A DNA stretch of 64,000 nucleotides from Bacteroidales bacterium (GCA_963682005.1 OY820914.1:605433-669432), one strand, 5' to 3'; counted from the first letter of the stretch, positions 31,361 to 58,016 are shown. Program-made: numbers and translations. Notes: generated from the letters alone by a model not told the origin.

Positions 31361-31410
31361 ATCTGAATTTCACGAATCATGTTTAACCTGTTATCTAAAA
31401 AAGAACAGCA

Positions 31411-31821: not shown

Positions 31822-31865
31822 TCACTATCCTGAATCAAAAGTTAAAACCAAAAGGAAAGGTTCTT

Positions 31866-32192: not shown

Positions 32193-32273
32193 GGAAATTT
32201 CACTTCCGGGGCGGATTTCCGGATGTTGATCGGGACCGGGAACAGTAGTACAGTGACATATGGATGGGCATAA

Positions 32274-33131: not shown

Positions 33132-33168
33132 TGGTTATGGAGTTATAATTTTTATTCTGAATATCTGA

Positions 33169-35043: not shown

Positions 35044-35061
35044 GTGTAATAAATTAGATTT

Positions 35062-35514
35062 TCAGTATTCAAAAGAAATATTAACGTTTGTATGCCGCTC
35101 GTCCGTTTGTTTGATGGTATATTCAAGCATCAGCGTTATTTTATAATCCTTCAGGTATTTACCGCTTGTTTTTCCGGTGGCCGGGTTACGTTCTGCGGGC
35201 TCATCCTCTTTATTTATCGCCTTGATCTCAGGCTCCCTCACCTGCACTGCCGTGATTCTGTCTTCATATTTTTCAAGCATGTCCTTCACCTGTTCGATAA
35301 ACCTTGGCTGCCACTGATGAATATTGAGGATCGGCTCAAATTCATAGGACCATATCTCATATCCGAAATCCTCATTAAAAAAACATTCGCCTTGCTTTGT
35401 AGCGATAAGCAGGCCGATCAATTGCTTGATCGATTCCTCCACCGACACCCTTTCAAAGGCACCTGAACGGCTGCGCTTATTAAACGTCAACGGGATATTG
35501 AGATACGGTTTCAT
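35062..35514 (-). CDS. tssE: T6SS baseplate gp25-like subunit
   Basis: YL.IPL.F...SI.Q.I.LLI.T..GE.....FG..IW...YE.RI. Confidence 0.88.
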   Translation of the reverse strand: MKPYLNIPLTFNKRSRSGAFERVSVEESIKQLIGLLIATKQGECFFNEDFGYEIWSYEFEPILNIHQWQPRFIEQVKDMLEKYEDRITAVQVREPEIKAINKEDEPAERNPATGKTSGKYLKDYKITLMLEYTIKQTDERHTNVNISFEY

Positions 35515-38524: not shown

Positions 38525-38556
38525 ATTTTCCAGTTTAGATGGATGGGTCTCCGGTT

Positions 38557-39381
38557 CTAAAATATCGATTGAATTTCCCTGAGGATATCAGGAACATCTT
38601 CATCCTGCCAGGTCAACCAGGAATTGGTTCCTCCTTTCCTTGTAAACAAACCATCCTGTGATAATTCAACAACCTTGTTTTCGGTCGCCTGTTCGCGCAA
38701 TAAGATCAGCACATCGGCATATTTTAATGAAAGATGAATGTTGTGGCTGACAATGATGGCTGATCTTTTGTTCTTCAGCAGGTTCTCCTTAAGAATGGAG
38801 ATAAGCTCATCGGAATTTGATTCATCCAGGTTGCCGGTTGGTTCGTCACCAAAGAGAACCGTAAATTTGGGAGTGATCGCTCTTACAAATGCAAGACGTT
38901 GTTTCTGCCCACCCGATAATTCAACGGCATTTTTCCAATCGGGGATTTCAGCAAGGCCCAGGGTCGACATAACAGAACGAACATTTGCATTTGCATTTTC
39001 CATGGTGGCTCCCTGGATCATCTGGGTCAGGCAGGCATTTTCCAAGGCAGTAAAATTCGGCATCAGGTTCGTATTCTGAAAAATAAAACTGAAATATTCC
39101 CGCCGGATCCTGCCTCTCTCCGAGAAAAGCTGTTCTTTCCAGAGATTTGCAAAGGAAATTTCCGAACTGTCCTCATTTGGCAAAAAAAGAATATCGCCAC
39201 TTTCGATCGTGTTGTTCATGAGTCCAAGGGTCTCCAGAAAGGTGCTTTTCCCGCTCCCGGATTTTCCCAGCAATACGACGAGCTTATTCCTTGGGATTTG
39301 AAGATCCGCGACTTTAAGCACAACATTCCCCCGTTTATATGCACAGTGGAGTTTCTTTATGATAAACAAAGGATTATCCAT
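38557..39381 (-). CDS. ABC ATP-binding protein (LolD/MacB-type)
   Basis: GKSGSGKS, FIFQ, LSGGQKQR, DEPTGNLD and VSH motifs. Confidence 0.92.
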   Translation of the reverse strand: MDNPLFIIKKLHCAYKRGNVVLKVADLQIPRNKLVVLLGKSGSGKSTFLETLGLMNNTIESGDILFLPNEDSSEISFANLWKEQLFSERGRIRREYFSFIFQNTNLMPNFTALENACLTQMIQGATMENANANVRSVMSTLGLAEIPDWKNAVELSGGQKQRLAFVRAITPKFTVLFGDEPTGNLDESNSDELISILKENLLKNKRSAIIVSHNIHLSLKYADVLILLREQATENKVVELSQDGLFTRKGGTNSWLTWQDEDVPDILREIQSIF

Positions 39382-39393
39382 ATATCCAACGTA

Positions 39394-40800
39394 TTAATAG
39401 AAAAAACGAAGGTCTACCCAATAGTACCGGGTGCTATTTGATACAAAAGTCAGCTTGCTGTTCTTCCCGGTGGATAACCGGGATAATTCATCCAGGCTTG
39501 TTCTCATTTTAGCCAGGAACGGGATGAGAAAGCTATCAGGAATCAGCGATTCATCTGTTAGTTTTCGTACAGAATTATTCAAAACGGCTTCGGATGAGTT
39601 TGTAATCCAGAAGAGATTCTCAAAAATTTCCTTCAACTTGTAATTCAATATTTTCTCCTCTTCAAGGTTCGGATATTCCTTTTTCATCAGGAGTATCAGG
39701 GTGAGTTTCAGTTTCTGCCTGTCGAGAACTGTTGATGAATTATCAATGACCGACCTCATATTCAACACCACTTCCATAAGCTCCTGGTTCGACATCAGGG
39801 TGACGTATTTGAACAGCGGATACTGCATGGAATCTGGTTTCCAGGGGGCATAGGCTGTTTTAAAATCATCGTCGACCATTTTAATTTTTTCTATTCCATC
39901 CTGTTCTTTGATCAGGGGAAAATAAATCCAATCATTTTTATCGCTTTCCGGTTGATAATTCCAGATCACGAACTTTTTGTCTGCCTTGCTTGTTTTCCTG
40001 AATCTGATGGCCTGCTCCTGATCAAAAAAGATGCTGGGAGCAATATTTTTCGAACTCATTTCACTCAATGCTTCAGGTGAATCGTTCGGCATGATCCAGG
40101 TCCGGGATTGCGGCAGGTAGCAAAAATCAATGGGAACCCATCCGATTATGATTTCCATTGGATCTGTACCAAAAGGGATTTTCCTTTCCCTGCCCAGGAG
40201 TATGGCCTTAGGTTCAATCTTATATACAAAATATAATTGCCTGGCTTCGGTGTATATTTTTCGTTTCTGCAGCAGTTCAGGGTCATTGTATACCTCCACC
40301 CCTGTTTTACTGTTCCCGGAGTTCTCTTGCGTGTTATACATATCTTCCTGGCCAAACGTCATAGCCTGAATATTTTGTTTCGTTTTCCCGTCGATAAGAC
40401 AATGACGCCATAAAAGGAGATCGTGCATATTGATCCAGCCTTTATCAACCGCTGTTTTTCCAAGATAAAAGTTATTCAGGTCTGGCGAGGGGTCCGAATA
40501 AACATGGAGGTATTCACCTACCATGTTGTTCACGAAATAGGTGTCATTTAACGATGCTTTCGAACCGATCTCCTTTGCCTCGGAAGTGCGGAAAAGGTTA
40601 TTGTTGCTCCTGTCTGAAAAAACTTCCCAGTAAGCCCCGGTATTTATGCTCAAAACATTACTCCTGTCCGCATTGTACTCAGGAACAATATATTCCTGTG
40701 GGATACCCATTATTTTAATTGGCAGATTCTTCTGCGCTGCGAGTACAAGAGGAAATAAGAGGAAAATGAAAATCATCCTCCTCTTTGAAAAATTGTCCAT
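39394..40800 (-). CDS. TssR-like protein lacking the vWA domain
   Basis: Shares WEVFSDR, GWI...LLLWR.CL, F.YK, GWV and the C-terminal YW.. with 40825..43266, but has no MIDAS motif; signal peptide present. Confidence 0.7.
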   Translation of the reverse strand: MDNFSKRRMIFIFLLFPLVLAAQKNLPIKIMGIPQEYIVPEYNADRSNVLSINTGAYWEVFSDRSNNNLFRTSEAKEIGSKASLNDTYFVNNMVGEYLHVYSDPSPDLNNFYLGKTAVDKGWINMHDLLLWRHCLIDGKTKQNIQAMTFGQEDMYNTQENSGNSKTGVEVYNDPELLQKRKIYTEARQLYFVYKIEPKAILLGRERKIPFGTDPMEIIIGWVPIDFCYLPQSRTWIMPNDSPEALSEMSSKNIAPSIFFDQEQAIRFRKTSKADKKFVIWNYQPESDKNDWIYFPLIKEQDGIEKIKMVDDDFKTAYAPWKPDSMQYPLFKYVTLMSNQELMEVVLNMRSVIDNSSTVLDRQKLKLTLILLMKKEYPNLEEEKILNYKLKEIFENLFWITNSSEAVLNNSVRKLTDESLIPDSFLIPFLAKMRTSLDELSRLSTGKNSKLTFVSNSTRYYWVDLRFFY

Positions 40801-40824
40801 GTATCGTATGAATCGGAATGAATA

Positions 40825-43266
40825 TTACGGCAGATCTGTTTGCTGGATCCAGTAGAACCGCTGTTCATGGTTTATAAACGAATAATGCTGATACCCTGGA
40901 ATATTATCCCTTATCTTGTTAAGAATCTTTTCCTTTGATCCGACCCTGTTTACCCATTTCGTCAGGTCTCTGTCTGATATGATGGAAGCATCTCCGATAT
41001 CGCGGATCTTATGCTGAAGGAGTTCGGTCTTCCCGACCGCACCAAATACAGTGGCTTCAGCTTCTGCAAGGGACATCTCCTCAATTTCCTTGTTTGAGAC
41101 GGACCCCATATGGCTTTTAAGCACCTGCATCCATGCGTTCTTAAATGCCTCCCTCAGCTGATCCGGGCTTAGCCCTTGTTCAATGGACAAGCTCTTTATC
41201 CGTAAAATCAATTCGGAGAGTTCCTCATTGCTGAAAAGAAGATCAAACTGCCAGAGGGGCAACTGTGCATTTTTTATGGTATTTGTGGTATAGCCCTCAC
41301 TGTAAACCTGTGCATGTTCTTCTGCAAGTATTTTCAGGTTTTCAACAGGAATATCCCAGATCGTCAGAAGGTTTAATACAGGACCAGTGAGGTTTTCCGT
41401 ACCTCCTCCATCCTGAAGATTCTGAACATTGGCCAGGGTGGCATTTGTAGAATCATTGATGCCGTGAATTGCTTTCACGATTTCTTTTGTTAACACTGGT
41501 GCTGACATGACGCCATCCTGACCAACAAACGTCTGTTGCATGACAAAACCTGCCTTTAAGGGAGAATTCAATAACATCCATTTTTTATCCTGGTCATAAT
41601 TGACCGGTAGAGTTGGGGGGGGCTTCACTGAATTTGTGGCATTTGCTGCATCCTGGAAATCGTTATAAACAAGCCGGCCCAACGTCACCAGGATATTCTT
41701 GGTATCCTTTACGAATTTATTGTAATACTCCCATCCGGCTTTGGGACAATGGACCTGGAAAGCAATGAAGCTGCAATTATAATCATGAAGCAGGTTGATG
41801 ACATCCGTGTTTGTAACAGGATTGTCATCGATCGCCTTGCCGTTATCTCCGGCATCTCCCACCAGGATAACAACATTTGTCTGCTTCTTGTCGGGGCTTG
41901 TTTTACGCAAAGCCGAACTTACACCATAGTTCACAGCTTCCGTAAAATCATGGTCATCATCATTGCTGAATGCTTTTCTATCCCGAAGCCAGCTTGCGAT
42001 TACACCATAATCGGAACTCAATCCTTTAAATTCTGCAACATTGTCCTTATCTTCCTTGTCCCTGTATATCATCACGGAAAATCTGAAATCATTCCTTTTG
42101 TCTGAGACAAGGTCCTTCATGCTCTCAATGATCCCCTCGCTTACACTGGCAAAATAGGGACTCATGCTTTTCGTTCCGTCAATCACGAAGATCATATTGA
42201 TGTTGCGGTTGATATCGCTACCCTTATTCAATAATTCCTTGGTATCAGCCCATTGAAATTCCGTGAGTTTACGGCCGCTTATGGTGTTGACTTCACCGAT
42301 CGATCCGATCTTAAAGATTTGATTTGTTTTATTGATCTCATCCTGGTTGGACAGGATCGGGAACCGGCTGAAATAGGAGCCGTATTGACTAATTGATTTG
42401 CATGAGTCATAATCCCAGACGACAGATTCAGGAGGGGGCTGTTGATTATCACGGTATTTCCGGGCTGCTTCGATGGTACTGAAAACGATGGCCTTGGATT
42501 TACGGGAATTCCTTTCTGAGATGGCTTCTGAAGCTGTATTGGGTATGGAAGCAACACGGTGATCCCAAACTGTAACCCGTTTTGCATCAACCCAACCTTT
42601 CACAGCATCCTTTTCAACATAATTCATAAACCTCGCCGTTGTGCCGAGCAGGTATGATCTGGGCTTTGTTGAGTTCGGAAAATAATTGATCTTATAGATG
42701 TAAAAAACCTGGTAAACATTGCATACATATTCATTTTTTTCCTTCATGTCAGGATCATCATAGAACCTAACAAATTTTGATTCGCCCGGCTCGAGCTTCG
42801 CCTTGGTCGCAAATTTTATGGTATTCATCAGGACGGCTTTTTTCGAAACGTCCTGTTCATTGTAAAGGCAACTCCTCCAAAGCAAAAGATTATCCTGGTG
42901 GATCCAACCATAATCCTTTGATGCCAGTGAGGGTTTCATTTCCTGTTCTGCCAGGTTATTATCCTTATAGATATGGATGTATTCTCCATCCACTTCTCCC
43001 ACGAAAAACCAATCCAGGTATTTTAAGGTTTTCATGACTTTTGTTCCGCCAGGAGTTGTATAAGTCTGATTCTTATTCCTGTCGGAAAACACCTCCCAGA
43101 TTGCCGTCAGATTGTCTCCCGGCAATTCTACTTTTGCTTCTAGATGTGGCTTATTATACTTGTTTGGGAGCATCTTGTAAGATTTTTCCCCGGTCTGGGC
43201 AAATCCTGAGCAAAATAGCAACAACAACAAATTCAAACACAGTAAACTCCTGAACATGAAAATCAT
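40825..43266 (-). CDS. tssR: T6SS-iii TssR-family protein with a vWA domain
   Basis: WEVFSDR.KN, LLLW..CL, vWA FVIDGTKSM...VILVGDAG and C-terminal FYWI...LP. The likely start is 43266; the 43323 start overlaps the upstream gene. Confidence 0.78.
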   Translation of the reverse strand: MIFMFRSLLCLNLLLLLFCSGFAQTGEKSYKMLPNKYNKPHLEAKVELPGDNLTAIWEVFSDRNKNQTYTTPGGTKVMKTLKYLDWFFVGEVDGEYIHIYKDNNLAEQEMKPSLASKDYGWIHQDNLLLWRSCLYNEQDVSKKAVLMNTIKFATKAKLEPGESKFVRFYDDPDMKEKNEYVCNVYQVFYIYKINYFPNSTKPRSYLLGTTARFMNYVEKDAVKGWVDAKRVTVWDHRVASIPNTASEAISERNSRKSKAIVFSTIEAARKYRDNQQPPPESVVWDYDSCKSISQYGSYFSRFPILSNQDEINKTNQIFKIGSIGEVNTISGRKLTEFQWADTKELLNKGSDINRNINMIFVIDGTKSMSPYFASVSEGIIESMKDLVSDKRNDFRFSVMIYRDKEDKDNVAEFKGLSSDYGVIASWLRDRKAFSNDDDHDFTEAVNYGVSSALRKTSPDKKQTNVVILVGDAGDNGKAIDDNPVTNTDVINLLHDYNCSFIAFQVHCPKAGWEYYNKFVKDTKNILVTLGRLVYNDFQDAANATNSVKPPPTLPVNYDQDKKWMLLNSPLKAGFVMQQTFVGQDGVMSAPVLTKEIVKAIHGINDSTNATLANVQNLQDGGGTENLTGPVLNLLTIWDIPVENLKILAEEHAQVYSEGYTTNTIKNAQLPLWQFDLLFSNEELSELILRIKSLSIEQGLSPDQLREAFKNAWMQVLKSHMGSVSNKEIEEMSLAEAEATVFGAVGKTELLQHKIRDIGDASIISDRDLTKWVNRVGSKEKILNKIRDNIPGYQHYSFINHEQRFYWIQQTDLP

Positions 43267-43279
43267 AGTTTGTCTCCTC

Positions 43280-45373
43280 CTACTCTTTTGATAAATTATA
43301 GAAAAAATAATCAACATTCGCATTTACATTCTGCTGGTCGGAACTGCTGCCAGTCTGGGTTTCTTTATTATAATTGATCAGGTCTCTCGGATCAATATCC
43401 TTGTCCAGAAAGACATATACCTTGATATTCCTGATATTGTCATGAGGCAGAATGATCCCGTCATTAACAATTCTTGAAATGAACATCCTTCCTCCATCCT
43501 TATATACCGAATAGGGCATATAAAACTGGATCTTTATCGTTGACTCAGTGGCAAGGTCAAGCTTCTGTATGGCATTATTGAAATTTGTGAAATCTTCATT
43601 CAGGTTTGGTTTGTCATCAAACAGCATCTGTATTTTCTGTAAAGTGCCCCGGTAAACTGCAGTATCGGAGGTAATATAAGGACGTTCCGCATTACTGACA
43701 AACAGTGAAAACGGAATATTATAGGCCTTAATGGATTCAAGTCTTGACTCGAGGGATTTGCGCGTGATTATACGGATAGAGGGCATGGGCAGGGTATAGA
43801 TGATGCTATATGATTTAGTAACTGAAAGATTAACCCTTTTTCCTGCATTGATCTCAGTGGGCGATAAAACGATGGAAAGCTTATCATAGACGGGGTCCGT
43901 AATGAAGATCTTGTATTTGATCCCTTCCATGCTGATCATATCGGGAATACCGTCTTTTACCTTGTATTTGATGATCGGATCGCCTTCTTTTGGTAGTGGG
44001 AACCCAATCTGCAGGTAACAATAATCAATGGGACGCCCTTTCTCAGGATCAAAAAAGTCGAGCTTTAATGTAGTTTTCGGAAACCGGATGCTGGCATTAA
44101 ATTTCACAATTTCATTTTTCGAATTCTTTGATGCCTTTAACTCCGACGGGGCTTCACAATCCAGAATAATGTCTGACCGGGATTGAAACAATTCAGGAAA
44201 TACCAGTGTATCCCGTACCTGGTCAAAAAACAGTTGCTGTCCTTTATACGCGAATATCAGCGGCAGCTTGTTCTTTCCGATAAGGGCCAGGGCTTCCGGA
44301 TCAGGATCCGACTCCCTGCGGTTTGTTTCCGCCTGTTCAACATTCACCGGGATTTCGATCGTATTCAATTGAAATTTCCGGATTTGCCTGTTGGATTCTT
44401 TGGATAACACCCTCAGCGTATCCGTGTGGGCAGAAAACTTAAAGTACATGGTACTTTCATTAAATGTCGACATCCGGCCGCTGATAAATGCAAGAATCTC
44501 AGGATAAACGATGGGGTTGATCTCTGGTAGCTTGGTAATGACAGGCCTGTTTACTGGAGATTCCACGGGTGTTTCAGACAGACCAGGTTCCGTGGCTTTG
44601 GGTTCTGCATTAAGAGCAGCTGGTTGCGTTTCAGGTGAGGATGGTGGGTTTACAGGTGCAGGCGGTGGTGTTACCGCTGCGGGAGGAATTACCGGGACTT
44701 CAGGTGTCTCGGTTTTTGCAATCGATTTCCCGGGCCAATCCACTTTTTCCACTTCGGTCAGCTGCATTTCAATTTTTTGCTTCACTTTAAATGCGGGTGG
44801 CAGCTCCGGGCACTTTTGCTTGTTGCAAAGTATGAACAGGATACCCTTTGCATCAGCGGGGTTTTTCATCAATTTCGAAATGTTATCTGCGAGCATTTTA
44901 TTGGCATTCAGATCCACCGCGATCAGGAAAAATTCCGACATATCTTCAAGATCCAACTGGGCTGCATTCTGAACGAAGACATCCGAAAGCAATGTGTGAA
45001 CTCCCGGCTGTGTTGTGGTATCAGAAGGCTTGGCCCAAAGAACATCCATATCAACAAGTGATGTGTTGCTGATCCCGGCAAAGCCCACAAGAATTTTCCT
45101 GGCAGGTATCCCTTCCGAACTTTTTTGCGGACCGATCTGATATTCAACCTTGAGCGGGATCAGAAATACCCCCTGAAGTGTACTGAAATCTTCCCCTGCC
45201 CTTGAGATGCCGTAAAATGATTTCGGGGTTGAGAAATCTTTCCTGGAGATTGGCAGCGGGGCAAAGACTTTCTTCTGCAATTCAACTTGTGCAGTTGCAT
45301 ACCCAGGGTCAAGGATAAGCAGGAGAAAAGATAAAAAACCGAAAAAAACTGAACGTGTATATGATCTTACCAT
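43280..45373 (-). CDS. Exported hypothetical protein with a Pro-rich linker
   Basis: Signal peptide, central PPAAVTPPPAPVNPP linker; tightly coupled to tssR. Confidence 0.7.
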   Translation of the reverse strand: MVRSYTRSVFFGFLSFLLLILDPGYATAQVELQKKVFAPLPISRKDFSTPKSFYGISRAGEDFSTLQGVFLIPLKVEYQIGPQKSSEGIPARKILVGFAGISNTSLVDMDVLWAKPSDTTTQPGVHTLLSDVFVQNAAQLDLEDMSEFFLIAVDLNANKMLADNISKLMKNPADAKGILFILCNKQKCPELPPAFKVKQKIEMQLTEVEKVDWPGKSIAKTETPEVPVIPPAAVTPPPAPVNPPSSPETQPAALNAEPKATEPGLSETPVESPVNRPVITKLPEINPIVYPEILAFISGRMSTFNESTMYFKFSAHTDTLRVLSKESNRQIRKFQLNTIEIPVNVEQAETNRRESDPDPEALALIGKNKLPLIFAYKGQQLFFDQVRDTLVFPELFQSRSDIILDCEAPSELKASKNSKNEIVKFNASIRFPKTTLKLDFFDPEKGRPIDYCYLQIGFPLPKEGDPIIKYKVKDGIPDMISMEGIKYKIFITDPVYDKLSIVLSPTEINAGKRVNLSVTKSYSIIYTLPMPSIRIITRKSLESRLESIKAYNIPFSLFVSNAERPYITSDTAVYRGTLQKIQMLFDDKPNLNEDFTNFNNAIQKLDLATESTIKIQFYMPYSVYKDGGRMFISRIVNDGIILPHDNIRNIKVYVFLDKDIDPRDLINYNKETQTGSSSDQQNVNANVDYFFYNLSKE

Positions 45374-45411
45374 AATTTCGATTGAACTCCTCAGGTTAAC
45401 GTCAAAACTTT

Positions 45412-46932
45412 TTAATAAGCAGTAAGACGGATGTTTATGCCAAGATCAAGACTGAATGCAGAAAGGGAGGCCTTGGAAGCTCCATAAAGACTGTTGAATG
45501 TATCATCACCGTTATACACGCTATAACCCGATCCCCTGTTTGCAATATTTGAAAAACCGTATGCATATTCAATGCCCAGGAATAAATCAATACTTTTCGA
45601 AAGACTTGCTTTAAGGCCCAGACCGACAAGGGCCGAAAGGTTGATGGAATTCAGATATGAATTGGTTGAAGTTGAAGAAAGGTCAGAATACGTGCCATAT
45701 CCATAGTCAGACAATTCATTTCCCCAAAGGATAATATTATCATACCCCGGATATTCTCCCATAAATGTACCGGTTCCGACTGTGGTTGTATAGTCTTTGG
45801 AAAGCACAAAGCTTGCTTTTATTCCCAGTTTCCCATAGAGCGAAAGTGCTTTTGATACTGAAAGGTCATATTTTACATAAAGAGGTATCTGCAGGTAGGA
45901 AATTTTATCTTCCTCCTTCAATGAGGTAAGCGTATCAATCAGGTTATACGGATCATTATCAATATCCACAAATTTTTCCGGAACATATTCATCAATATGG
46001 TTTGTCGTCAGTGTATTGGTATACATTCCATAATCGATCGTCAGGCCGACGCTTAACAATCCTGCTGAAGACTTGAACAAACCTGCTTCGATACCCAGGC
46101 CACCGGCCAGGACGATCCCCGACTCAGATGTAAGTGACGAGATATTTCCCTGTCCCTGATCGGCGATCGTTACATTGAACATGGAGTAGCCCGGAAGTAA
46201 ATGAATAACAAATGATATTGGTTTCTTATTGGCTTCAACTCCCGAGTCGGCAGTAATTATTCCCATTTTGGATACCTCGTCGCTCGGGCAATATTTTGTC
46301 AAGGCTTCCGAGAAGGCTGTTTTGGCTTTCTTGTAATCTTTTTTTGCAAGATATGTTTTCCCGATGTCGCGCAATTCCTTGCATTTATCGTTCCCGATGG
46401 TGTCTTCGATTTTCGCAATTTTGAACGAAGTAAGCAGGTCGTTGAACTGGATGACAAAATTCAGAGGGGTTTTAGGTGAATGGATATGTTCATCCTTGTA
46501 CATCCCCTGCATTTCCTTCCGGGTACTTACCACGATCTGATAATTGTTCTTGCTATAGCTCTGGATGGGGTTTTTCTTTCCGATCTTAACGACCACGACC
46601 ATACCTGCGGGATACCACTGCCTGACATATTCAATATATTTTGAGACCGTGATATGCGTCGGGGTTTTTTTCGAATAATCGAGGTCGTTGATTACATCAA
46701 CTTCAGGAGAAACAAAAAGTTTCCGGAATCCGTCGACATATTCTTCCAGGATCTTGCCTTCATCAACATCCCTGGTGAACTGTGAAAATTCTTCATATCG
46801 GCGAATGATGGAATCTGCCTTTCGGTTGACGGTGTTTTTTTCCGCTGGTGTAAATGTACGCTGTGCGAACCCGGGAAGAGAGAAACAGATGGTGATGACA
46901 GAGAGAAAATAATATATCTTTTTCATAGTCAT
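45412..46932 (-). CDS. Outer-membrane beta-barrel protein with N-terminal periplasmic and TPR-like domains
   Basis: Signal peptide, TPR-like helix pair, amphipathic strands, YLQIPLY and C-terminal FSLDLGINIRL (PorT/OMP_b-brl_2-like). Confidence 0.75.
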   Translation of the reverse strand: MTMKKIYYFLSVITICFSLPGFAQRTFTPAEKNTVNRKADSIIRRYEEFSQFTRDVDEGKILEEYVDGFRKLFVSPEVDVINDLDYSKKTPTHITVSKYIEYVRQWYPAGMVVVVKIGKKNPIQSYSKNNYQIVVSTRKEMQGMYKDEHIHSPKTPLNFVIQFNDLLTSFKIAKIEDTIGNDKCKELRDIGKTYLAKKDYKKAKTAFSEALTKYCPSDEVSKMGIITADSGVEANKKPISFVIHLLPGYSMFNVTIADQGQGNISSLTSESGIVLAGGLGIEAGLFKSSAGLLSVGLTIDYGMYTNTLTTNHIDEYVPEKFVDIDNDPYNLIDTLTSLKEEDKISYLQIPLYVKYDLSVSKALSLYGKLGIKASFVLSKDYTTTVGTGTFMGEYPGYDNIILWGNELSDYGYGTYSDLSSTSTNSYLNSINLSALVGLGLKASLSKSIDLFLGIEYAYGFSNIANRGSGYSVYNGDDTFNSLYGASKASLSAFSLDLGINIRLTAY

Positions 46933-46954
46933 TTTTTTTGCTGTTAAAAATGAA

Positions 46955-48388
46955 TTAATAGACCAGGGTTTTGCTGATCAACCGTTCGCCGTTGCCGAGG
47001 ACAGCTTCGATGAAGTATATACCTTTATTCAGGCCAACCAACTCCAGAGGCACATTTTCAACCTGGACAGTCTTATCATACCTTATGCGTTTCATTTCAT
47101 TTCCAATGACATCTCTGACAAAAACATCCACCGTGCCACTATAATCACTATTAAGTTCACAGTTTAAATGGCCATCGTTCGGATTTGGAAAAATTCTCAT
47201 AAATGATGTTTCGATAATTGCTTTTGATGAGTCTGTAGGATAATATTCCCTGTAACAATCAGAATTGTCATTCGAAGAAACTTCCAAATAATAGGTATAA
47301 TCTGAAATACTATTTGTTTCATATACACAAAATACTTTACCATCAAAGTTCCCGCATTCACTACAGGTATCTTTAAAGGGCTCTTTTTTTATTTTCCCCC
47401 AGCGATAAGAATTTTGATATGGATCACAGGATGTACACATCAGAAAGAGCTTATTTGAATTTGGGTAAGCATTTAGCTTTCTTTCAATTGTTTCTCTTCC
47501 TTTACCATGAATAAAAAACAAGGAAGCTTCTGCTGTATCGATATCCGAACATGTAATATTTAATGGTTTCATATGACAAAAAATGGTATCCCTTCCAATT
47601 TTATATGAATTTGTTTTAAAAGTATATAGGTCTTGTCCCTTATATGATTTGCCGTGTAATTCCCACCTAAAATAATATTCTGCAGGGTTTGAGGGGTTTG
47701 CATGGAATTCAATCGTGTCATTATAACAGGCGGAATATAATGGATCACCCGCCGATGTAGTTGCTGTTATTGTTAGGCTGTTAAGAAAGGGTTCAATAAC
47801 ATGAATATTTTTTGTGATTGAAGCGGAACTTAGGCATGTTCCTGTTTTATTTTTAGCAGAAATATCTCCACCCGCAAAAACACTATCGAACGACACAATT
47901 ATACTACCAGTACTTCCTCCGCTAACTATATGTGAATTGGGGGGTAAAGACCAATAACAGTTTTGAACCGGAACTCCGAATTTATAGGCAATGTAAGGAA
48001 CTGATCCTTCACCCGCACAAACGCTACTTTTCCCGGAAAGAGAATCGAGGTTGTCAGGAATACTTAATATGTGGATATATAAAGTGTCGTCAGGCCCTTC
48101 CCCATTAATATTTACAGCACGTGCTGTAAGATAAAAAATTCCTGAAGTATTTCCGGCAGCAATTAAAACTGTATCTCGATTGGGATCATATGGATATTCC
48201 ATTCCCCCATTCCATTCATTATTCCAGATAACATTTGTCACACCTTGAATTTTATCAATGTAAAATTTTTGTGTTGTAAGTGTACAAATTGAATCTGGAC
48301 CATTAATCGTTGGCTGAATCGGTACTTGTCCACGAATTACCGTAATACCCAAAAATAAAAAGGTTAAAAATAAGGGAACTTTTTTCAT
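46955..48388 (-). CDS. T9SS type A CTD protein with PKD-like/Ig repeats
   Basis: Signal peptide, I.GP..IC and SG..SVC repeats, CTD IFPNPN.G...L.KGIYFI...K.LV. Confidence 0.85.
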   Translation of the reverse strand: MKKVPLFLTFLFLGITVIRGQVPIQPTINGPDSICTLTTQKFYIDKIQGVTNVIWNNEWNGGMEYPYDPNRDTVLIAAGNTSGIFYLTARAVNINGEGPDDTLYIHILSIPDNLDSLSGKSSVCAGEGSVPYIAYKFGVPVQNCYWSLPPNSHIVSGGSTGSIIVSFDSVFAGGDISAKNKTGTCLSSASITKNIHVIEPFLNSLTITATTSAGDPLYSACYNDTIEFHANPSNPAEYYFRWELHGKSYKGQDLYTFKTNSYKIGRDTIFCHMKPLNITCSDIDTAEASLFFIHGKGRETIERKLNAYPNSNKLFLMCTSCDPYQNSYRWGKIKKEPFKDTCSECGNFDGKVFCVYETNSISDYTYYLEVSSNDNSDCYREYYPTDSSKAIIETSFMRIFPNPNDGHLNCELNSDYSGTVDVFVRDVIGNEMKRIRYDKTVQVENVPLELVGLNKGIYFIEAVLGNGERLISKTLVY

Positions 48389-48497: not shown

Positions 48498-51400
48498 TTA
48501 TTTGTTACCAGAAGACTCCAATCCAACAGGGGGAGTCGGAGCGACAGGAAATCTCACTCCAACATGTTTCGACAGAATAACTCCGTTATTGTCTTTCCTG
48601 TCATCTCGCGTAGCAACAACAGACCACGAAAAAGATACATTGGATGAGCCATGATTAAGTTCATAAACATCAAACCCTTCCTTTGTCTTGTTTGTAACAT
48701 AAACTCCATTGCACTCACCTTCTAGTTGAACGAAAACCTTCATTGGACATTCTTCGTTTACAATAATGTTTTTTGAGAATACCGGGTCAAGTGTAATATG
48801 AGAATGACCGGCTATTAACCTATCAACCCCATAGTCTGTAAACAAGATATCCGGCGATTCTGGGCAAAACATCATAACTTGTTTTCCGTGTTGATTTTCA
48901 ACAATAGTTCCTGCAACCCCGGTACCAGTAACCTTATAATCCGTACCGCCAGATGTTTTGCCTCCAAGATAGGATTGGGCAGTCCCGCAAGAAAAGAACC
49001 CTCCGTAGTTTCCATTTGAGGACACGGTTGCAACTGCATATAAACCATATATCTTCCCAAAAAACCCGCCTCCTGCACCACCAGAAACTGAACCTCCGGA
49101 TGAACCTCCTCCTATTCCAATAATTCCAACTCCATTTGTATTTGTATTGGTTGACTTGATGACAGCATCACTGGTAGAGGAAACGGATGACGAGATATCA
49201 ATGGTGGATGAGGAGTTAAATGGGCCAGTCATTGTTCCTCCCGCTGTAGGAAGGGCGCTTATATCTGAACAATTCAAACTTCTGCTATTTGCGGAAGTAA
49301 GTCTCCCTTTCGAATCAACGGTAAAGTATGGAACACTTGCACCGGAACTTCCACCATATGATCCGGAAGCAACACCAGATGTTGAAAGAGCCAGTGTGCC
49401 AGTATTGCTGATACTTGCATCTCCTGACATGATGACATCTGTTGCAGTACCCGATGAATTACCTACAAAGATATGTGCTGAAACTAACGAAGAGGATAAC
49501 AATGGTCCATAAGTGGAATTATTAATTCTTGCAAATAATCCTGATGTGGTTGTCCATAAATCGCCATTTACAGGTGAAGAGGGAGCCGTTCCATGAGGTA
49601 AGCTAACCCCTGAGTTGCCCGATGATGATGCCACTGTTGTTAATTTCCCAGTCATTGTTCCTCCAGCAATTGGCAGAGCCCCAAAATCAGAACACGCCAG
49701 ATTTCGGCTGTTGGCAACAGTAAGTCTTCCTTTGGAATCAACAGAAAAATAGGGAACGCTCGGACCAGAACCTGATCCATATGATCCTGCATTAACACCC
49801 GATGGCGACAGCGTTAATGTGCCAGAACTACTTAAACCAGCATCTCCTGACATGGACACATCTGTTGCCACATTTGATGCATTCCCTACAAAAATATGTG
49901 ATGATGATAATGTAGCCGTTAAAGCATTAATATCCCCGAGGTTCAGATTTCTGCTATTCGCAGAAGTAAGTCTGCCTTTTGAATCAACGGTCAGATACGG
50001 AACACTTGCTCCACTGCTACCCCCATAGGATCCTGCAGTTACACCAGAGGCTGAAAGGGTAAGAGCTCCGGTGTTGCTCATTGTTGCATCACCGGTCATG
50101 GCCACATCTGTTGCTGCATTCGATACGTTTCCAACAAATATGTGCGATGAAGTTAACCCTGATTGAAGCAATGGTCCTGTTGTTGTATTATTGGCCCGAA
50201 CAAACAAACCTGCACTTGTAGTCCACAGATCACCGTTTACTGGTGCAGCGGGAGCAATACCATGGGGCAGATTCAGTCCGGCATTTCCCGCGGTAGAACC
50301 AACAGTATTCAACTTCCCTGTCATTGTTCCCCCTGTTGTGGGTAATCTTAACGTAGTAAACGTATTCCAATCTGTGGATGATAAAAATCCAGGCAGTGAA
50401 CCGTTGGCTTTCTGGCCATTTGTATAATCCAGTGAGACGATTCCTGTAGCTGCATCAAAATCTGAAGATGTAAATGCTGAAGCCCCTTTGGTACTTCCGT
50501 CGGCAGCTGCATCTGCAATTGATATAACAGGTGTTGTACCACCGCTTGAGCTCACAGGTAAAGTACCAGTTACTGATGTAACCGTCCCTGTTGTTGAGCT
50601 TAATGGTCCTACAGTAGTGTTATTTACCCGCACAAATAACCCGCCCGTTGTTGTCCACATATCACCATTGCCTGGAGAAGTTGGTGCAATCCCATGGGGC
50701 AGATTCAGTCCGGCATTTCCCGCGGTAGAACCAACAGTATTCAACTTCCCTGTCATGGTTCCTCCTGTTGTGGGTAATCTCAACGTAGTAAATGTATTCC
50801 AATCTGTGGATGATAAAAATCCAGAAACAGAACCATTTGCCTTTTGTCCGTTAGAATAATCCAGGGATACAATGCCAGTTGAAGTATTGAAATCCGCTGC
50901 TGTAAAGGTGGACGCTCCTTTTGTACTTCCATCGGCTATGGCATCCAGAATTGAAATTGCCGGAGTTGTGCCACCGGTTGATGCAACAGGAGTCGTTCCG
51001 GTCACGGATGTTACTGTCCCTGTTGTTGAACTTAATGGGCCAATAGTACTACCGTTAATACGGATAAAAAGGCCTCCTGTGGTCGTCCATATATCACCAT
51101 TGCCGGGTGAAGATGGTGCAATCCCATGAGGCAGATTCAGACCGGCATTTCCCGCGGCAGAACCAACAGTATTCAATTTCCCTGTCATTGTTCCTCCTGT
51201 TGTAGGTAATCTTAACGTAGTAAAAGTATTCCAATCTGCGGATGATAAAAATCCAGAAACAGAACCATTTGCCTTTTGTCCGTTAGAATAATCCAGCGAA
51301 ATCACTCCTGTGGTGGCGTTAAAATCTGTTGCTGTATATGTTGATGCACCTTTCGTACCTCCGTCAGCTGCTGCATCAGCAATTGATATGATCGGAGCTG

Positions 51401-51860
51401 TACCACCGCTTGAAATTACTGGAGCCGTCCCAGTAACAGACGTAACCCCGGTTCCCGACCCTGACTTCTTCGCATACATCGCATACGGAACATATTTGAA
51501 CTGGGATGTTCCAATTTCCGTATAAGCAGATGCCCCGGAAAGTTTAATCGTAGTCCTTAAATAATAGGAAGCATCACTCCAATCAATGGAATCAAATTTC
51601 CCTACTCTATCGATTCCGGCACCAACACTTAGTGTTACCAATCCCAAATCACTTGTTATCGTATCATGCTTTTCACTATATATTACAGAACCGACAGGAC
51701 TTCCTTTCAGGATATACAATTTAAAGCTTACAGCCTGGTTTATCACCTGGATCCCGGAATTATCCCTGACAACCATTTGAAAATTAAACGGGGTGCCGGA
51801 TTGTGCAAATGCTGAAACTGCCAACCCCATCACAACGAAAAACACGTAAAGCTTTTTCAT
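48498..51860 (-). CDS. Secreted tail-fibre-like (probably trimeric) repeat adhesin
   Basis: Signal peptide; Bacteroidota N-domain FNFQ.VVRD..G...YSE.H...GL..L.VG...VPYAMYA; three 144-aa repeats and three ~80-aa SSHIFVGN...VDSKGRLT repeats; LP..GGTMTG motifs. Confidence 0.75.
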   Translation of the reverse strand: MKKLYVFFVVMGLAVSAFAQSGTPFNFQMVVRDNSGIQVINQAVSFKLYILKGSPVGSVIYSEKHDTITSDLGLVTLSVGAGIDRVGKFDSIDWSDASYYLRTTIKLSGASAYTEIGTSQFKYVPYAMYAKKSGSGTGVTSVTGTAPVISSGGTAPIISIADAAADGGTKGASTYTATDFNATTGVISLDYSNGQKANGSVSGFLSSADWNTFTTLRLPTTGGTMTGKLNTVGSAAGNAGLNLPHGIAPSSPGNGDIWTTTGGLFIRINGSTIGPLSSTTGTVTSVTGTTPVASTGGTTPAISILDAIADGSTKGASTFTAADFNTSTGIVSLDYSNGQKANGSVSGFLSSTDWNTFTTLRLPTTGGTMTGKLNTVGSTAGNAGLNLPHGIAPTSPGNGDMWTTTGGLFVRVNNTTVGPLSSTTGTVTSVTGTLPVSSSGGTTPVISIADAAADGSTKGASAFTSSDFDAATGIVSLDYTNGQKANGSLPGFLSSTDWNTFTTLRLPTTGGTMTGKLNTVGSTAGNAGLNLPHGIAPAAPVNGDLWTTSAGLFVRANNTTTGPLLQSGLTSSHIFVGNVSNAATDVAMTGDATMSNTGALTLSASGVTAGSYGGSSGASVPYLTVDSKGRLTSANSRNLNLGDINALTATLSSSHIFVGNASNVATDVSMSGDAGLSSSGTLTLSPSGVNAGSYGSGSGPSVPYFSVDSKGRLTVANSRNLACSDFGALPIAGGTMTGKLTTVASSSGNSGVSLPHGTAPSSPVNGDLWTTTSGLFARINNSTYGPLLSSSLVSAHIFVGNSSGTATDVIMSGDASISNTGTLALSTSGVASGSYGGSSGASVPYFTVDSKGRLTSANSRSLNCSDISALPTAGGTMTGPFNSSSTIDISSSVSSTSDAVIKSTNTNTNGVGIIGIGGGSSGGSVSGGAGGGFFGKIYGLYAVATVSSNGNYGGFFSCGTAQSYLGGKTSGGTDYKVTGTGVAGTIVENQHGKQVMMFCPESPDILFTDYGVDRLIAGHSHITLDPVFSKNIIVNEECPMKVFVQLEGECNGVYVTNKTKEGFDVYELNHGSSNVSFSWSVVATRDDRKDNNGVILSKHVGVRFPVAPTPPVGLESSGNK
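50170..51460. repeat. Three intragenic 432-bp direct repeats
   Basis: GCAGATTCAG..CGGCATTTCCCGCGG recurs at 50267, 50699 and 51131 (exact 432-bp period); the outer boundaries are approximate. Confidence 0.85.
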
Positions 51861-51915
51861 ATGTTTTGTTTTATAAAGTATTCTCGAAATCAGTCCTTAT
51901 TCCCTTTTGAAAAAT

Positions 51916-53799
51916 TTACCTGGCAATAATGATCTTCCGGATCTCGCCGGCTGCATCATTCCCTGTTCTGAAATAAATAAAATAAATTCCATTCGGCAGA
52001 TCAGAAACATCTACCTTATACTGATGCGAACCCGCAGGAAGCAATCCGAATTCATTCTGCTTACAATTATTCCCCAGCAACCCTTCGATACCAATAGATA
52101 CGCGAACTTCCTGCGCAAGACTGAAGACTACATTCAGAACGGTACTTGCGGGATTCGGGTAGATCCTGCAATTTGCAATGAGCGGATCGTTTTCTGCAGT
52201 ATTGCCGGACGACAAGGCCTTCAATACGGGAGCGGAGAGAATCATGTTGCTGAGAGGTTCTCCTTCGCTATCCGCCAGCTCAGACTCCTCATCAAGGGAG
52301 AACCGGACGACAGATGAAGAACTGAATTTCTCCGAAATCTTAACATGCAATGTGATCAGTATATCTTCCGCTAAAACCTGGATCGGATCCAGTTCGGACC
52401 AAACAATCCTTACCTGATCTTTGTAGATACTGAATAACAATCCCGGTTTACTAAAGGAGACATCCCTGATGGTTAAAAGTTCACTTGGATAATTGATCTT
52501 CAGCGTAATTGCACCAATCTGAGCCCCGGTTTTCAACCTGAGCGGAATTTCAATTTCCTGTGCCTGACTAACTCCTATAATTTGCTCCTGAACAAGTTCA
52601 ACCTCATTTTGAAATGATTTGCCTGTAAAAGGTACATATGAACTGTTTACGTCTCCAACGCATAACCCATAGAAATTATCGGTATTTGCGACACTATTCA
52701 CAATAATGGCATTACCACCGATCGCAGGCAGGGAGAATGTCCAATCCCCTCTGTTAAACAAATTAATTTGGCCAAGAAACCTCTTTTTAACCAATAATGC
52801 ATCTGTCCCATTTATATAATTACTGTTATCGACATCGCCTGCAAGCAATTTGACAGGCTCACTCCAATTTTCTAACCCTGCAAACTCGCGTTGAATTTTC
52901 AGCGCATCCGTTGAGTTCACACTCTTCCAGATTTTTTTTGTGGAGGCTTCCAGGTTATATTCCCCCATAGGAATGTTACTAATTAAATAGTACCCCGAAC
53001 TATTCGTTGAGAAGAACCCAAATATCTCATTATTCTTCTTAAGGACAAGATTTATGCTATCCAATCCTGAATTACTCACATAATAATATGAAAATGTCCC
53101 GGAAACCGTAGCCGGAGTGAATATAGTTCCATTGTGATAATAAAGGCCTGAAGGCTGGTCCGTCACTGTTGATCCGCCAGCTTTATGATATCTGCAATCC
53201 TTGCCGCCATTGGATTCGTTATTAAAAGTTAACGAAGCAATATTTCCGGATACGTGTGTAAAGTTCAGATCCATCAACTTCGAATAGTGTGAAAGTGTAA
53301 CTGGTATGGCAGATGACCACCTGATTAAAATTGCATGTATGGCGCCAGAAATGGTGGTATCATTGAGCTGAACACCAGAGCTGATTGATAAATTAACATT
53401 GGTGTGTGATGTAAAAGTGAGTAAGGTCGAGTCATATTCGATTCTTAGCTTCATGGTATCCATCCCAGTAAAACCAAAGACTCTGATTGGCATTACTGCC
53501 GTATTGCCGATAGCCGCACCTGTATCTGTCAACATGGTAATGGGTGCCGTATAAATCTCCGGTTGCTGAAACCCGGTTGTGGCTTTGATACCGGGCACCG
53601 ATAATGTATTCACAATATTTTCACCAACCGTAATGCTCTGGGGACCTATAATTCCTGAATAACTATCGCCCAGGGAGGAAATTACCACAGGGCCGTAATT
53701 CTGGCAAAACAAAGGGGCCGCCGGAAACCAGAAAAGGAACAACATCCAAAAAACAGTTCTTCCAGAAACCTTTTGACTGGATTGTCGATTTGTCTTCAT
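51916..53799 (-). CDS. T9SS type A CTD protein with cohesin-like and dockerin-like domains
   Basis: Cohesin-like segments MPIRV.GF......L.I.YD..LL.F and IPLRL...IGAITL.I.Y; dockerin-like VNSTDAL and GDVDNS.YINGTDAL; CTD IYPNPA...LPNGIYF...KIII. Confidence 0.8.
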   Translation of the reverse strand: MKTNRQSSQKVSGRTVFWMLFLFWFPAAPLFCQNYGPVVISSLGDSYSGIIGPQSITVGENIVNTLSVPGIKATTGFQQPEIYTAPITMLTDTGAAIGNTAVMPIRVFGFTGMDTMKLRIEYDSTLLTFTSHTNVNLSISSGVQLNDTTISGAIHAILIRWSSAIPVTLSHYSKLMDLNFTHVSGNIASLTFNNESNGGKDCRYHKAGGSTVTDQPSGLYYHNGTIFTPATVSGTFSYYYVSNSGLDSINLVLKKNNEIFGFFSTNSSGYYLISNIPMGEYNLEASTKKIWKSVNSTDALKIQREFAGLENWSEPVKLLAGDVDNSNYINGTDALLVKKRFLGQINLFNRGDWTFSLPAIGGNAIIVNSVANTDNFYGLCVGDVNSSYVPFTGKSFQNEVELVQEQIIGVSQAQEIEIPLRLKTGAQIGAITLKINYPSELLTIRDVSFSKPGLLFSIYKDQVRIVWSELDPIQVLAEDILITLHVKISEKFSSSSVVRFSLDEESELADSEGEPLSNMILSAPVLKALSSGNTAENDPLIANCRIYPNPASTVLNVVFSLAQEVRVSIGIEGLLGNNCKQNEFGLLPAGSHQYKVDVSDLPNGIYFIYFRTGNDAAGEIRKIIIAR

Positions 53800-57068: not shown

Positions 57069-58016
57069 TTAAACTTTCATCAGCTGTGATTTGTATTCAT
57101 GTTCGCGTTTGCAGATGATCATGTAGGACTGCCCTTCCCTGTCCTTTTGATTCGTGACATACTCGATCTCTTCGATGGTTGATGGTCCGAAAACGTGGGT
57201 ATTGGTAAAACCAAGCTCGATCAGCGTCTTGTTGGGATCAAGGATCTTCCCCACCGTCCTGCCATCGGAGAGAAAGAAGAACCAGCCCAGGTAGTTATTG
57301 CTCCGGTCCTTCACTTCGATATTAAACTTCCCCTGTGTCACTTTATAGGCTTCAAGCGTGGCATTGAAGAAATCACCCAGCTTTATGTTGGCCGGTGCCC
57401 TCATGGGTTGCGAATCAATAAATTCTTTCCCTGTTTCGATGGTTAGCCGGTATTTAATAATTATGATAACCTCAGTTGGATCAATCGAAAGGGTCGGGCT
57501 TTTAAAATACATCCATGGTTTCTGGGGCAGGTAGATCTTCGGAGGGATCAGCAGGTAGCAATCGTAAGCGTAAACCAGGAACATGGGGATAAAAAAAGTT
57601 GTGACAGCTGAAATATTGTACAGGTTATTTTGCGCATACCTGCCGATGCTCATGAAGGTTAGAAGGCCTGCAAATCCTATAAACACTACGGCAACTGCAT
57701 ATAGCAACCTCCATCCTATGGGTTCCATGGCCGGCCATTCAAGAACCTTCTTCGACAGAAATACATGAAGAACACCACCAATAAGATTCCAGATAAGGAT
57801 CAGCAGGTAGATGTAGAAAATATTACCAGGCCAGCTATTGGCGCGGATCCCGACAATACCGAGGAATATGAAACTGCATGCAAGGTAGATCAGGTTAAAA
57901 CCCATTTTCTTTTTCGCGCTTTCAACATAGAAAGTTATCAGCAGGACCAGGATCATTGCAATGGTCGTGCAGATAAGAATCGGGGGTACTGGTTTCAGAA
58001 GGAATGAATAGCCCAT
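57069..58016 (-). CDS. tssN: T6SS-iii membrane protein TssN
   Basis: About 5 TM helices then IPPKIY..W, AP....LGDFF, GW.F, LDP.KT and I.CKR. Confidence 0.88.
   Translation of the reverse strand: MGYSFLLKPVPPILICTTIAMILVLLITFYVESAKKKMGFNLIYLACSFIFLGIVGIRANSWPGNIFYIYLLILIWNLIGGVLHVFLSKKVLEWPAMEPIGWRLLYAVAVVFIGFAGLLTFMSIGRYAQNNLYNISAVTTFFIPMFLVYAYDCYLLIPPKIYLPQKPWMYFKSPTLSIDPTEVIIIIKYRLTIETGKEFIDSQPMRAPANIKLGDFFNATLEAYKVTQGKFNIEVKDRSNNYLGWFFFLSDGRTVGKILDPNKTLIELGFTNTHVFGPSTIEEIEYVTNQKDREGQSYMIICKREHEYKSQLMKV

Follow-up and report, generated by a model that had tools for sequence, protein, structure and literature searches.

A putative MAT-type mosaic fibre in a Bacteroidales T6SS-iii locus, with candidate links to a T9SS-anchored protein and a TssR-containing envelope module

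Bdellovibrio has 21 fibres of the mosaic adhesive trimer (MAT) type, trimeric proteins in which a conserved β-rich domain of about 130 amino acids follows the signal peptide and which end in tips of the S74 and non-S74 classes (Caulton et al. 2024, PMC10769870). In the portion of that paper available to us, the surface binding partner of the conserved N-terminal domain is left open, and the main text points to Supplementary Tables 3 and 4 where MAT-like proteins from other bacteria are concerned. Here we describe two adjacent open reading frames (ORFs), P0001 and P0002, which lie 55 bp apart on the same strand of a 64,000-nucleotide stretch of DNA from a Bacteroidales bacterium (GCA_963682005.1 OY820914.1:605433-669432; hereafter the window), and compare the mosaic fibre encoded by P0001, its neighbour P0002 and the surrounding genes with the MAT fibres and with type VI secretion systems (T6SSs).

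Several T6SS studies bear on this locus. In the available part of the report on B. fragilis, TssR is described as an essential protein of the membrane complex of the subtype iii system (T6SS-iii) (PMC10781749). Aureispira has a T6SS-iv to which extracellular 'antennae' are attached, the composition of which is not given in the accessible text (bioRxiv 10.1101/2024.01.29.577165 and PMC12428579). A 2026 review groups TagQ and TslA under 'target recognition' among the T6SS accessory factors and, in its accessible portion, makes no mention of a fibre, an adhesin or the T9SS (type IX secretion system) (PMC13584744). The P0001/P0002 pair is flanked on both sides by T6SS-iii genes, found by library scans of the window ORFs as ClpV, TssB, TssC, VgrG, PAAR, TssE, two copies of TssR, TssK, TssN and TssG; the locus also holds two PAAR genes with effector and immunity genes, a TssF?/TssE gene and an ATP-binding cassette (ABC)/FtsX system. 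The related fibres of the metagenome contigs L080, L081 and L109 lie inside T6SS-iii loci as well. The initial annotation of the window had listed both ORFs, the repeats of the first, the dockerin and T9SS C-terminal sorting domain (CTD) of the second and the T6SS-iii setting, and all of these are present as it described them.

Our preferred explanation, to which we give slightly better than an even chance, is that P0001 is a MAT-type mosaic surface fibre held at its N-terminal domain (ND) by the GFQQP module of P0002, which the T9SS anchors, and linked through its C-terminal type to an envelope module of TssR, an ABC ATPase and an FtsX-type permease. P0001 is a Sec-exported protein with a MAT-like ND, a stalk of shuffled modules resembling those of phage tail fibres, and a lectin-like β-sandwich tip (CT). 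Judging from gene order, two conserved neighbourhoods are joined in it, that of ND with an upstream T9SS cargo protein of the GFQQP type, and that of CT with a downstream series of a PKD/CTD protein, an outer-membrane protein (OMP), in some cases u697, TssR, the ABC ATPase and FtsX.

The N-terminus of P0001 (MKKLYVFFVVMGLAVSAFAQ) was judged by eye to be signal-like, and neither Pfam nor an in-house CTD hidden Markov model (HMM) found a T9SS CTD in the protein. Searches with the whole P0001 gave no match in Pfam, NCBIfam, PHROGs or the PDB sequences, and relaxed Pfam searches with stalk segments returned sub-threshold matches only (e.g. gp37_trimer, E 0.037). Its repeats are far above chance, with LPxxGGTMTG occurring five times, HIFVGN and VDSKGRLT three times each, and GT[VG]TSV twice. 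Each A unit of the stalk consists of an a1 part (GTVTSV…GQKANGS…DWN) and an a2 part (LPTTGGTMTG…NGDxWTT), and the A units are followed by three B units of ~80 amino acids, one extra a2 and the start of another a2. Across 119 database homologs, ND, a1, a2, B and CT are distributed separately over different proteins, and Phage_fiber_2, PTR, Peptidase_S74, Collagen, Gp53-like_C or Phage_tail_C is present in some of these. The a2 part matched short pieces of the tail-fibre proteins of two phages, Rhizobium phage Paso and Stenotrophomonas phage StenR_269, at identities of 53% and 42%.

For the tip, an alignment of 57 sequences served to model CT with AlphaFold, giving a mean predicted local distance difference test (pLDDT) score of 74 that rises above 90 in the last β-sandwich. 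Foldseek found nothing in the PDB at E<=1e-3. The exhaustive VIA search placed the Pam1 tailspike tip (7EEA) on top, with a Z-score of 10.4 and a root-mean-square deviation (rmsd) of 1.6 A over 71 residues, followed by the K64-1 depolymerase (8.3), the R2 pyocin fibre (8.1), the K1 lyase (8.0), AP22 gp53 (7.7) and then H-type lectins. Residues ~1006-1085 of P0001 resemble, by these Z-scores of 10.4 to 7.7, the tips of phage tailspikes, phage fibres and R-pyocins with the H-type lectin fold (7EEA, 9K4A, 6CL6, 7W1C and 4MTM; rmsd 1.6-2.8 A, 70-78 residues). In the BFVD, 22 matches at E<=1e-3 were led by phage minor-tail and tail-fibre proteins. Unlike the phage tips, P0001 has a Sec signal and lies in a cellular locus, and while 228 relatives of CT were confirmed in metagenome contigs, none was found among 154 candidates in the IMG/VR viral contigs. 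CT is thus a cellular domain despite its phage-like fold. P0001 shares with phage and tailocin fibres both a repeat module (a2, by sequence) and a tip fold (CT, by model). The fold likeness of the modelled CT to trimeric phage tips is an indirect indication that P0001 may be a homotrimer; collagen triple-helix repeats preceding CT in four homologs (P0039, P0040, P0049 and P0053) are a further indirect pointer to a trimeric fibre.

ND was found in 27 ORFs of the organism's own genome (5.27 Mb), always directly after the signal peptide. None of these 27 proteins has a T9SS CTD, lenient thresholds included, in a genome in which 264 ORFs have one. We scanned the C-terminal 300 amino acids of 25 of the other 26 ND proteins, leaving out one of 188 amino acids, and found Peptidase_S74 in eight and Fib_succ_major in six (five above the cut-off); the rest end in Lcl_C, PKD_6, Gly_rich_2 or nothing recognized. 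The tip of P0001 belongs to the non-S74 class. Structural searches with ND gave generic Ig-like matches only in Foldseek against the PDB, a best VIA Z-score of 7.0 and no specific solved relative, and the ESM Atlas returned only unnamed Bacteroidota clusters.

A complete Bdellovibrio genome was reached via P0025, a homolog from Bdellovibrionales. The Bacteroidota ND profile matched 13 large ORFs (589-2594 amino acids) of this genome at their N-termini, with a best E-value of 1.4e-5, and five of the six Bdellovibrio loci that were fetched have an ND match, in each case right behind the signal peptide. ND and the Bdellovibrio N-termini have in common the motifs …YQG.I…G.PL…V.F.F.I…IY.E…G.F.V.IG.GT… and …VPY..YA…. 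Both groups have an N-terminal domain of ~110-130 amino acids behind the signal peptide, a long mosaic stalk, variable tips of S74 and non-S74 classes, and large sets of paralogs (27 here, 21 in Bdellovibrio). P0001 differs from the MAT fibres in phylum and in that a subset of the ND genes here is paired with a T9SS-anchored GFQQP protein; its CT is not among the solved MAT tips (Z 4.5 with the Bd2133 tip in VIA), and P0001 is described here from sequence and models. The initial annotation's description of P0001 as a fibre-like protein resembling those of Bdellovibrio is borne out by the a2 matches to phage tail fibres, by the tailspike- and pyocin-fibre-like fold of CT and by the 13 Bdellovibrio fibre ORFs. 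With a β-rich domain of ~130 amino acids directly behind the signal peptide, although the cross-phylum match is weak, and a multigene family with mosaic stalks and both classes of tip, P0001 probably belongs, as a non-S74 protein, to a branch of the MAT-type superfamily in Bacteroidota.

The initial annotation had given as a rule that a GFQQP module usually precedes a gene with this N-domain, and the rule is borne out. A single-sequence exhaustive phmmer search with the 71-amino-acid GFQQP stretch gave only seven relatives, among them one protein of 633 amino acids with the architecture of P0002 and five of 155-169 amino acids made up of a signal, the module and a CTD, and a profile was needed to reveal the family. 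Of 401 genomes sampled in the class, 220 have GFQQP by profile (219 of 400 without the unpublished genome G134), almost always in frames of 160-195 amino acids. In the own genome, four of five GFQQP ORFs are immediately beside an ND gene (background 1.46%, binomial P 2e-7); GFQQP is upstream in three of these pairs, with a 55-bp gap, a 2-bp gap and an overlap, and downstream in one. Among 30 loci fetched from the class, which include the own genome's unpaired GFQQP copy, an ND gene lies directly downstream of GFQQP on the same strand in 18; the ND HMM was built from own-genome paralogs and may have overlooked divergent N-domains in the remaining 12. In 28 of 30 families and 27 of 30 genera tabulated, ND and GFQQP are either both present or both absent, a descriptive figure, as relatives are not independent.

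Cargo proteins with a type-A CTD have this domain cleaved by the T9SS and become fixed to the cell surface. Most GFQQP proteins have no more than 155-195 amino acids, made up of the signal, the module and the CTD, and since their mature part is little more than the module, these proteins may be regarded as surface-fixed stubs. Because GFQQP genes are adjacent to ND genes and the two have nearly equal phyletic distributions, we consider the GFQQP module of a T9SS-anchored protein a candidate surface dock of MAT-type fibres. In predictions of the complex of ND with the GFQQP module, ipSAE was 0.00 in both runs, with the fold of the partner uncertain, an outcome that weighs neither for nor against binding. 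The GFQQP-ND gene pair in Bacteroidia seems to be undescribed in the literature searched, which did not cover one supplement of PMC10769870.

P0002 is an unusually long GFQQP protein that carries the genome's generic tail of dockerin, cohesin-like domain and CTD. The initial annotation had given it two cohesins, a dockerin and a CTD; the dockerin and the CTD stand, and so does the first cohesin, just above the cut-off, but the second cohesin-like region stays below it. Dockerin_1 scored 24.2 bits with the whole protein and 37.9 bits with the segment alone. P0002 resembles T9SS type-A cargo with cohesin and dockerin modules in its Por_Secre_tail, Dockerin_1 and marginal cohesin, and differs in that its cassette is common to 39 cargo proteins of this genome and has no cellulosome context.

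The other end of P0001 belongs to a different neighbourhood. The order of this module is a fibre ending in CT (CT-fibre), a T9SS-CTD protein of 437-482 amino acids that often has PKD domains, an OMP-like protein of 450-556 amino acids, in some cases u697 or small genes, TssR, in some cases a short TssR, the ABC ATPase and FtsX. CT-fibres head the TssR module in 12 of 22 modules of the family (10 of 20 surveyed, the window and G001), and the module was also found in five metagenome contigs (L080, L081, L058, L101 and L109). The synteny of L080 and L081 is near-identical to that of the window (TssG-N-K-u162-TPR-fibre-PKD/CTD-OMP-u697-TssR), and L080 repeats it gene for gene from TssG to TssR without any P0002. 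Of the other 10 surveyed modules, six have larger T9SS-CTD proteins, placed immediately before the OMP-like gene in four and farther upstream in two, and four have neither a fibre nor such a protein. The pair is not kept in close relatives: among 40 of them, none has a full-length P0002, and the fibre body or CT is present in only five, as a full CT in two (G001 and G037) and as short pieces in three (G002, G022 and G040). In the window (36881-48388) and in L058, L101, L172 and L175-L194, TssR was always accompanied by an ABC ATPase and an FtsX permease (sometimes fused), an OMP_b-brl_2-type protein and at least one T9SS-CTD protein. The short TssR paralog, with an N-terminal barrel and a C-terminal domain and no VWA, recurs beside full-length TssR in L052, L054, L081, G021, G444 and G001 (C39:63513-65042).

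The fibres of the surveyed modules start with a different domain, N2 (PF26696; matched by 23 of 25 annotated homologs), and ND was found among TssR-linked fibres only in the window and L109. Since the other TssR-linked fibres have N2 rather than ND, P0001 is a chimera of an ND-type base, which brings P0002, and a CT-type end tied to the TssR module. N2 (…SAMLDVKS..KG.L.PRMT…GLLVY…) occurs in the fibres of L175-L183, L189 and L080 and in 22 ORFs of the own genome (e.g. G000 3295196-3301360 and 4809752-4813895), being N-terminal itself or immediately following ND at ~170-240.

Taken together, we propose that P0002 would be secreted by the T9SS, lose its CTD and become fixed to the cell surface as type-A cargo does, and that its GFQQP module would bind the ND of the fibre. 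This binding could take place already in the periplasm, so that the fibre without a CTD would cross together with P0002. The base of the fibre would then be held at the surface, with the tip projecting outward as an adhesin. In this genome the fibre unit may act close to the T6SS machine, because it has the orientation of the TssR operon and is closely packed with it in the T6SS-iii locus.

A number of observations weigh against this proposal. The match of ND to Bdellovibrio is weak (E about 1e-5 per genome) and covers chiefly the first half of the domain. Only four of the 27 ND genes of the own genome have a GFQQP neighbour, 12 of the 30 class loci have no ND match, and the GFQQP profile matches nothing in the Bdellovibrio genome searched; if GFQQP is the dock, it would be a solution specific to Bacteroidota. 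P0002 itself, from about residue 225 to residue 625, is a cassette of an Ig-like domain, Dockerin_1, a cohesin-like domain and a type-A CTD found on 39 T9SS cargo proteins of the genome, always C-terminal, with a CTD in 40 of 48 cassette ORFs and in all 39 full cassettes. Cohesin-dockerin contacts might polymerise a surface scaffold, as the initial annotation envisaged; the cassette is the generic tail of many cargo proteins and no fibre-specific device. No ND, GFQQP or P0002-like gene was found in the 20 surveyed TssR modules of the family, and no P0002-like gene lies beside the CT-fibres of L080, L058, L101 or G001. Since the other TssR-linked fibres use N2 and have no GFQQP gene, P0002 is not needed for a CT-type fibre in itself. 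All 12 of the fibre-headed family modules have the PKD/CTD protein, a neighbour more constant than P0002 that could be the real anchor of the fibre. Finally, CT is 40-50% identical across many lineages, which is unusual for a receptor-binding tip and may reflect contact with a conserved partner instead.

Cassettes like that of P0002 (51925-53125 in the window; e.g. G000 1551141-1583682, 933817-941047 and 1061932-1070596) occur on proteins of up to ~6,400 amino acids, often in tandem gene arrays, and the cargo proteins bearing them possibly form a surface network.

The initial annotation had viewed the fibre as a means of target recognition for the T6SS. In such a reading it would be an extracellular part of the T6SS-iii, seated on a TssR-containing outer complex and serving target recognition or as a trigger of firing, a role that we consider unlikely. 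The view draws on the gene order of the window, L080/L081 and L109, where the fibre is the first gene of the TssR operon, on the CT-fibres at the start of the TssR modules counted above, and on G001, in which a compact core T6SS locus has no TssR and the one full-length TssR gene belongs to the fibre module, which lies on a different contig (farther on, the profile also matched a short TssR2-like ORF there). It is also in line with the essential role of TssR in the B. fragilis T6SS-iii and the existence of the Aureispira antennae, as given in the available parts of PMC10781749 and bioRxiv 10.1101/2024.01.29.577165, and with a quick tree in which four of five T6SS-linked CT domains group with those of L073 and G001 (SH-aLRT 90), L058 lying outside. 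The distribution of the genes, however, points the other way. Of 90 genomes in the family, 26 have TssR, 12 have TssC and 13 have TssN, and only six combine TssR with a T6SS marker. Neither TssC nor TssN was found in 20 of the 26 TssR genomes, 10 of these 20 being at least 95% complete, and seven of the 13 T6SS genomes have no TssR; the odds ratio for TssR and the T6SS markers is 2.4 (Fisher P 0.19), relatives not being independent. Fibre-headed modules were in genomes without T6SS markers in seven of 10 cases, no T6SS gene was found in the flanks, many of them short, of 75 of 80 metagenome CT loci, and the five T6SS-iii loci of other families have no fibre and carry large T9SS-CTD proteins in its slot. 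Across genomes, the fibre module thus did not co-occur with the T6SS core genes. This wider distribution shows that the fibre/TssR module needs no T6SS, and that the stable partner of the fibre is the TssR/ABC/FtsX module, itself part of a T6SS-iii locus in some cases only. An antenna role is possible in this organism and is not supported as a general rule. The related statement that T6SSs normally lack target recognition was too strong, as TagQ and TslA are described in the accessible portion of PMC13584744. We regard as rather improbable the fuller version, in which the fibre, the PKD/CTD protein, the OMP, TssR and ABC/FtsX would form a T9SS-installed extracellular 'antenna' with a trans-envelope transmitter that senses contact and triggers the T6SS-iii in loci of the window type, GFQQP being the surface receptor of the MAT-type ND.

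The fibre, the PKD/CTD protein, the OMP, the TssR-like protein and an ABC/FtsX mechanotransmitter could form an autonomous envelope module, a surface appendage complete in itself, in which the PKD/CTD protein and the OMP are the anchor and P0002 is secondary or incidental, having come with the swap of ND. We hold this to be somewhat unlikely. The module is conserved with or without a T6SS, every fibre-headed module has the two proteins of 437-482 and 450-556 amino acids after the fibre, larger CTD proteins fill the same slot in fibre-less modules, and the PKD/CTD and OMP proteins of G001, from the same genus, are weakly homologous to those of the window (E 9e-10 and 3e-6). On the other hand, the linkage of ND to GFQQP is strong and independent of the TssR module, TssR has no known function outside the T6SS, and the homology of the OMP between loci is weak. 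Capture by chance of a tail-fibre remnant from a prophage or tailocin would account for the a2 module and the phage-like fold of CT, yet we find it scarcely credible: the fibre has a Sec signal peptide and a synteny conserved with cellular envelope genes, the 27 ND paralogs are spread over the chromosome, PHROGs had no match for the five proteins scanned (P0001, P0002, the PKD/CTD protein, u697 and TPR463), and CT is absent from the viral contigs as described above. Scans of the window ORFs likewise revealed no phage structural genes or cluster of them, and the remnant was rejected. The docked MAT-type fibre, tied by its tip to the TssR module, is the explanation that we retain.

Compared with the T6SS-iii membrane complex TssN-Q-O-P-R (Bongiovanni et al. 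2024, PMC10781749), the window has the same type of locus, a TssR with the barrel, VWA and C-terminal domains, and adjoining PKD-domain proteins. The available text of that report mentions neither ABC nor T9SS, whereas TssR is found here always with ABC/FtsX, an OMP and T9SS-CTD proteins and mostly without TssC or TssN. Likened by description only, the fibre module shares with TslA and TagQRST (available portion of PMC13584744) and with the Aureispira antennae the concept of a device in the envelope or outside the cell by which cell contact is coupled to firing; the Aureispira system is of subtype iv, with the antenna proteins unnamed in the accessible text, and that of the window is a T6SS-iii.

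The features of the pair and of its neighbourhood are collected in Table 1. TagS and TagT are a pair of the ABC/FtsX type, as are the ABC ATPase and FtsX-type permease encoded downstream of TssR.

Table 1. Features of P0001, P0002 and the neighbouring genes; positions are counted from the first letter of the window
Feature	Position	Strand	Description
P0001	48498-51860	-	1120 aa, mosaic fibre without CTD
ND, aa 21-133	51462-51800	-	Ig-like β-sandwich and helix, homologous to the N-domain of MAT fibres; 27 paralogs in own genome; model pLDDT 90
Three 144-aa A units (each a1 and a2), aa 134-565	50166-51461	-	Repeat analysis; a2 matches annotated phage tail-fibre proteins
B-B-a2-B-a2' stalk modules, aa 566-880	49221-50165	-	
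Gly-rich linker and conserved C-terminal domain CT, aa 881-1120	48501-49220	-	β-sandwich at ~1006-1085
P0002	51916-53799	-	627 aa, T9SS cargo with N-terminal GFQQP module, cohesin-like domain, Ig-like domain and dockerin, weak second cohesin-like region, type-A CTD
GFQQP module, aa 31-83	53551-53709	-	HMM E 8.9e-27; proposed dock for the fibre N-domain
Cohesin-like domain 1, aa 91-225	53125-53529	-	Pfam Cohesin 26.4 bits against cut-off 24.1 (whole protein); 18.5 bits with segment alone
SdrD_B/CarboxypepD_reg-like Ig domain and Dockerin_1, aa 244-342	52774-53070	-	Dockerin_1 E 2.1e-9
Second cohesin-like region, aa 396-545	52165-52614	-	Cohesin 13.9 bits, E 0.061, below cut-off
T9SS type-A C-terminal sorting domain, aa 546-625	51925-52164	-	Por_Secre_tail E 2.3e-9, 37.9 bits against cut-off 27
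PKD_6 and T9SS-CTD protein, 477 aa	46955-48388	-	Conserved downstream neighbour of CT-fibres; Por_Secre_tail found
TPR and OMP_b-brl_2 outer-membrane protein, 506 aa	45412-46932	-	Conserved module member
u697, 697-aa protein	43280-45373	-	No family assigned; common to L080, L081, L185 and L186
TssR, 832 aa	40825-43323	-	Pfam TssR, TssR_VWA and TssR_C
Short TssR paralog, 468 aa	39394-40800	-	
ABC ATPase and FtsX-type permease	36881-39381	-	Always downstream of TssR
TPR-like protein, 463 aa	53964-55355	+	Opposite strand; position conserved in L080 and L186

Further observations were made on the window. The 463-aa gene is TPR/YbgF-like and separates the TssG-N-K-162aa genes from the fibre operon, a place and orientation kept in L080 and L186 (G444). 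The T6SS-iii of the window (18856-20238 and 57069-58016) is of a lineage different from that usual in the family, its TssC scoring an E-value of 2.8e-152 against about 1e-232 and its TssN being 25% identical to that of G001 (C10). The closest synteny, that of the metagenome contig L080, suggests that the whole locus may have been acquired horizontally. The T6SS cargo region (15857-35514) has VgrG, PAAR, a D123-like ATP-grasp protein, two DUF4123 adaptors and a PAAR-Big_1 protein, together with a WHH/colicin-DNase nuclease (23962-24846) and its SUKH immunity gene (24859-25335), an Ssp4-like effector (32274-33131) and a 482-aa protein with a weak astacin motif. On the plus strand at 409-9261 there are genes for large Fe-S/FAD oxidoreductases that resemble heterodisulfide reductase, along with those for a class-V aminotransferase and for DsrE-like and FlpD-like proteins, a cluster which suggests an anaerobic lifestyle. 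Between 9.2 and 13.9 kb there are only small ORFs and no tandem repeats, and an Rfam scan of the window found no family.

MAT-type fibres would appear to be widespread in Bacteroidia, as ND was found in 248 of the 401 sampled genomes (247 of 400 without the unpublished genome), and the pairing of GFQQP with ND offers a concrete candidate for the binding partner that the MAT paper left open. Docking by GFQQP would also be a possible route to the Bacteroidota surface for proteins without a CTD. The largely T6SS-independent module of TssR, ABC/FtsX, OMP, CTD protein and fibre likewise seems to be undescribed in the literature searched. If the antenna reading were true, the fibre would give the first molecular identity to an extracellular structure attached to a T6SS. 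Regardless, the occurrence of TssR with ABC/FtsX, an OMP and T9SS cargo, often with a fibre and mostly without a T6SS sheath, raises the question whether TssR is specific to the T6SS, which it may not be, and points to an envelope module of its own in these bacteria.

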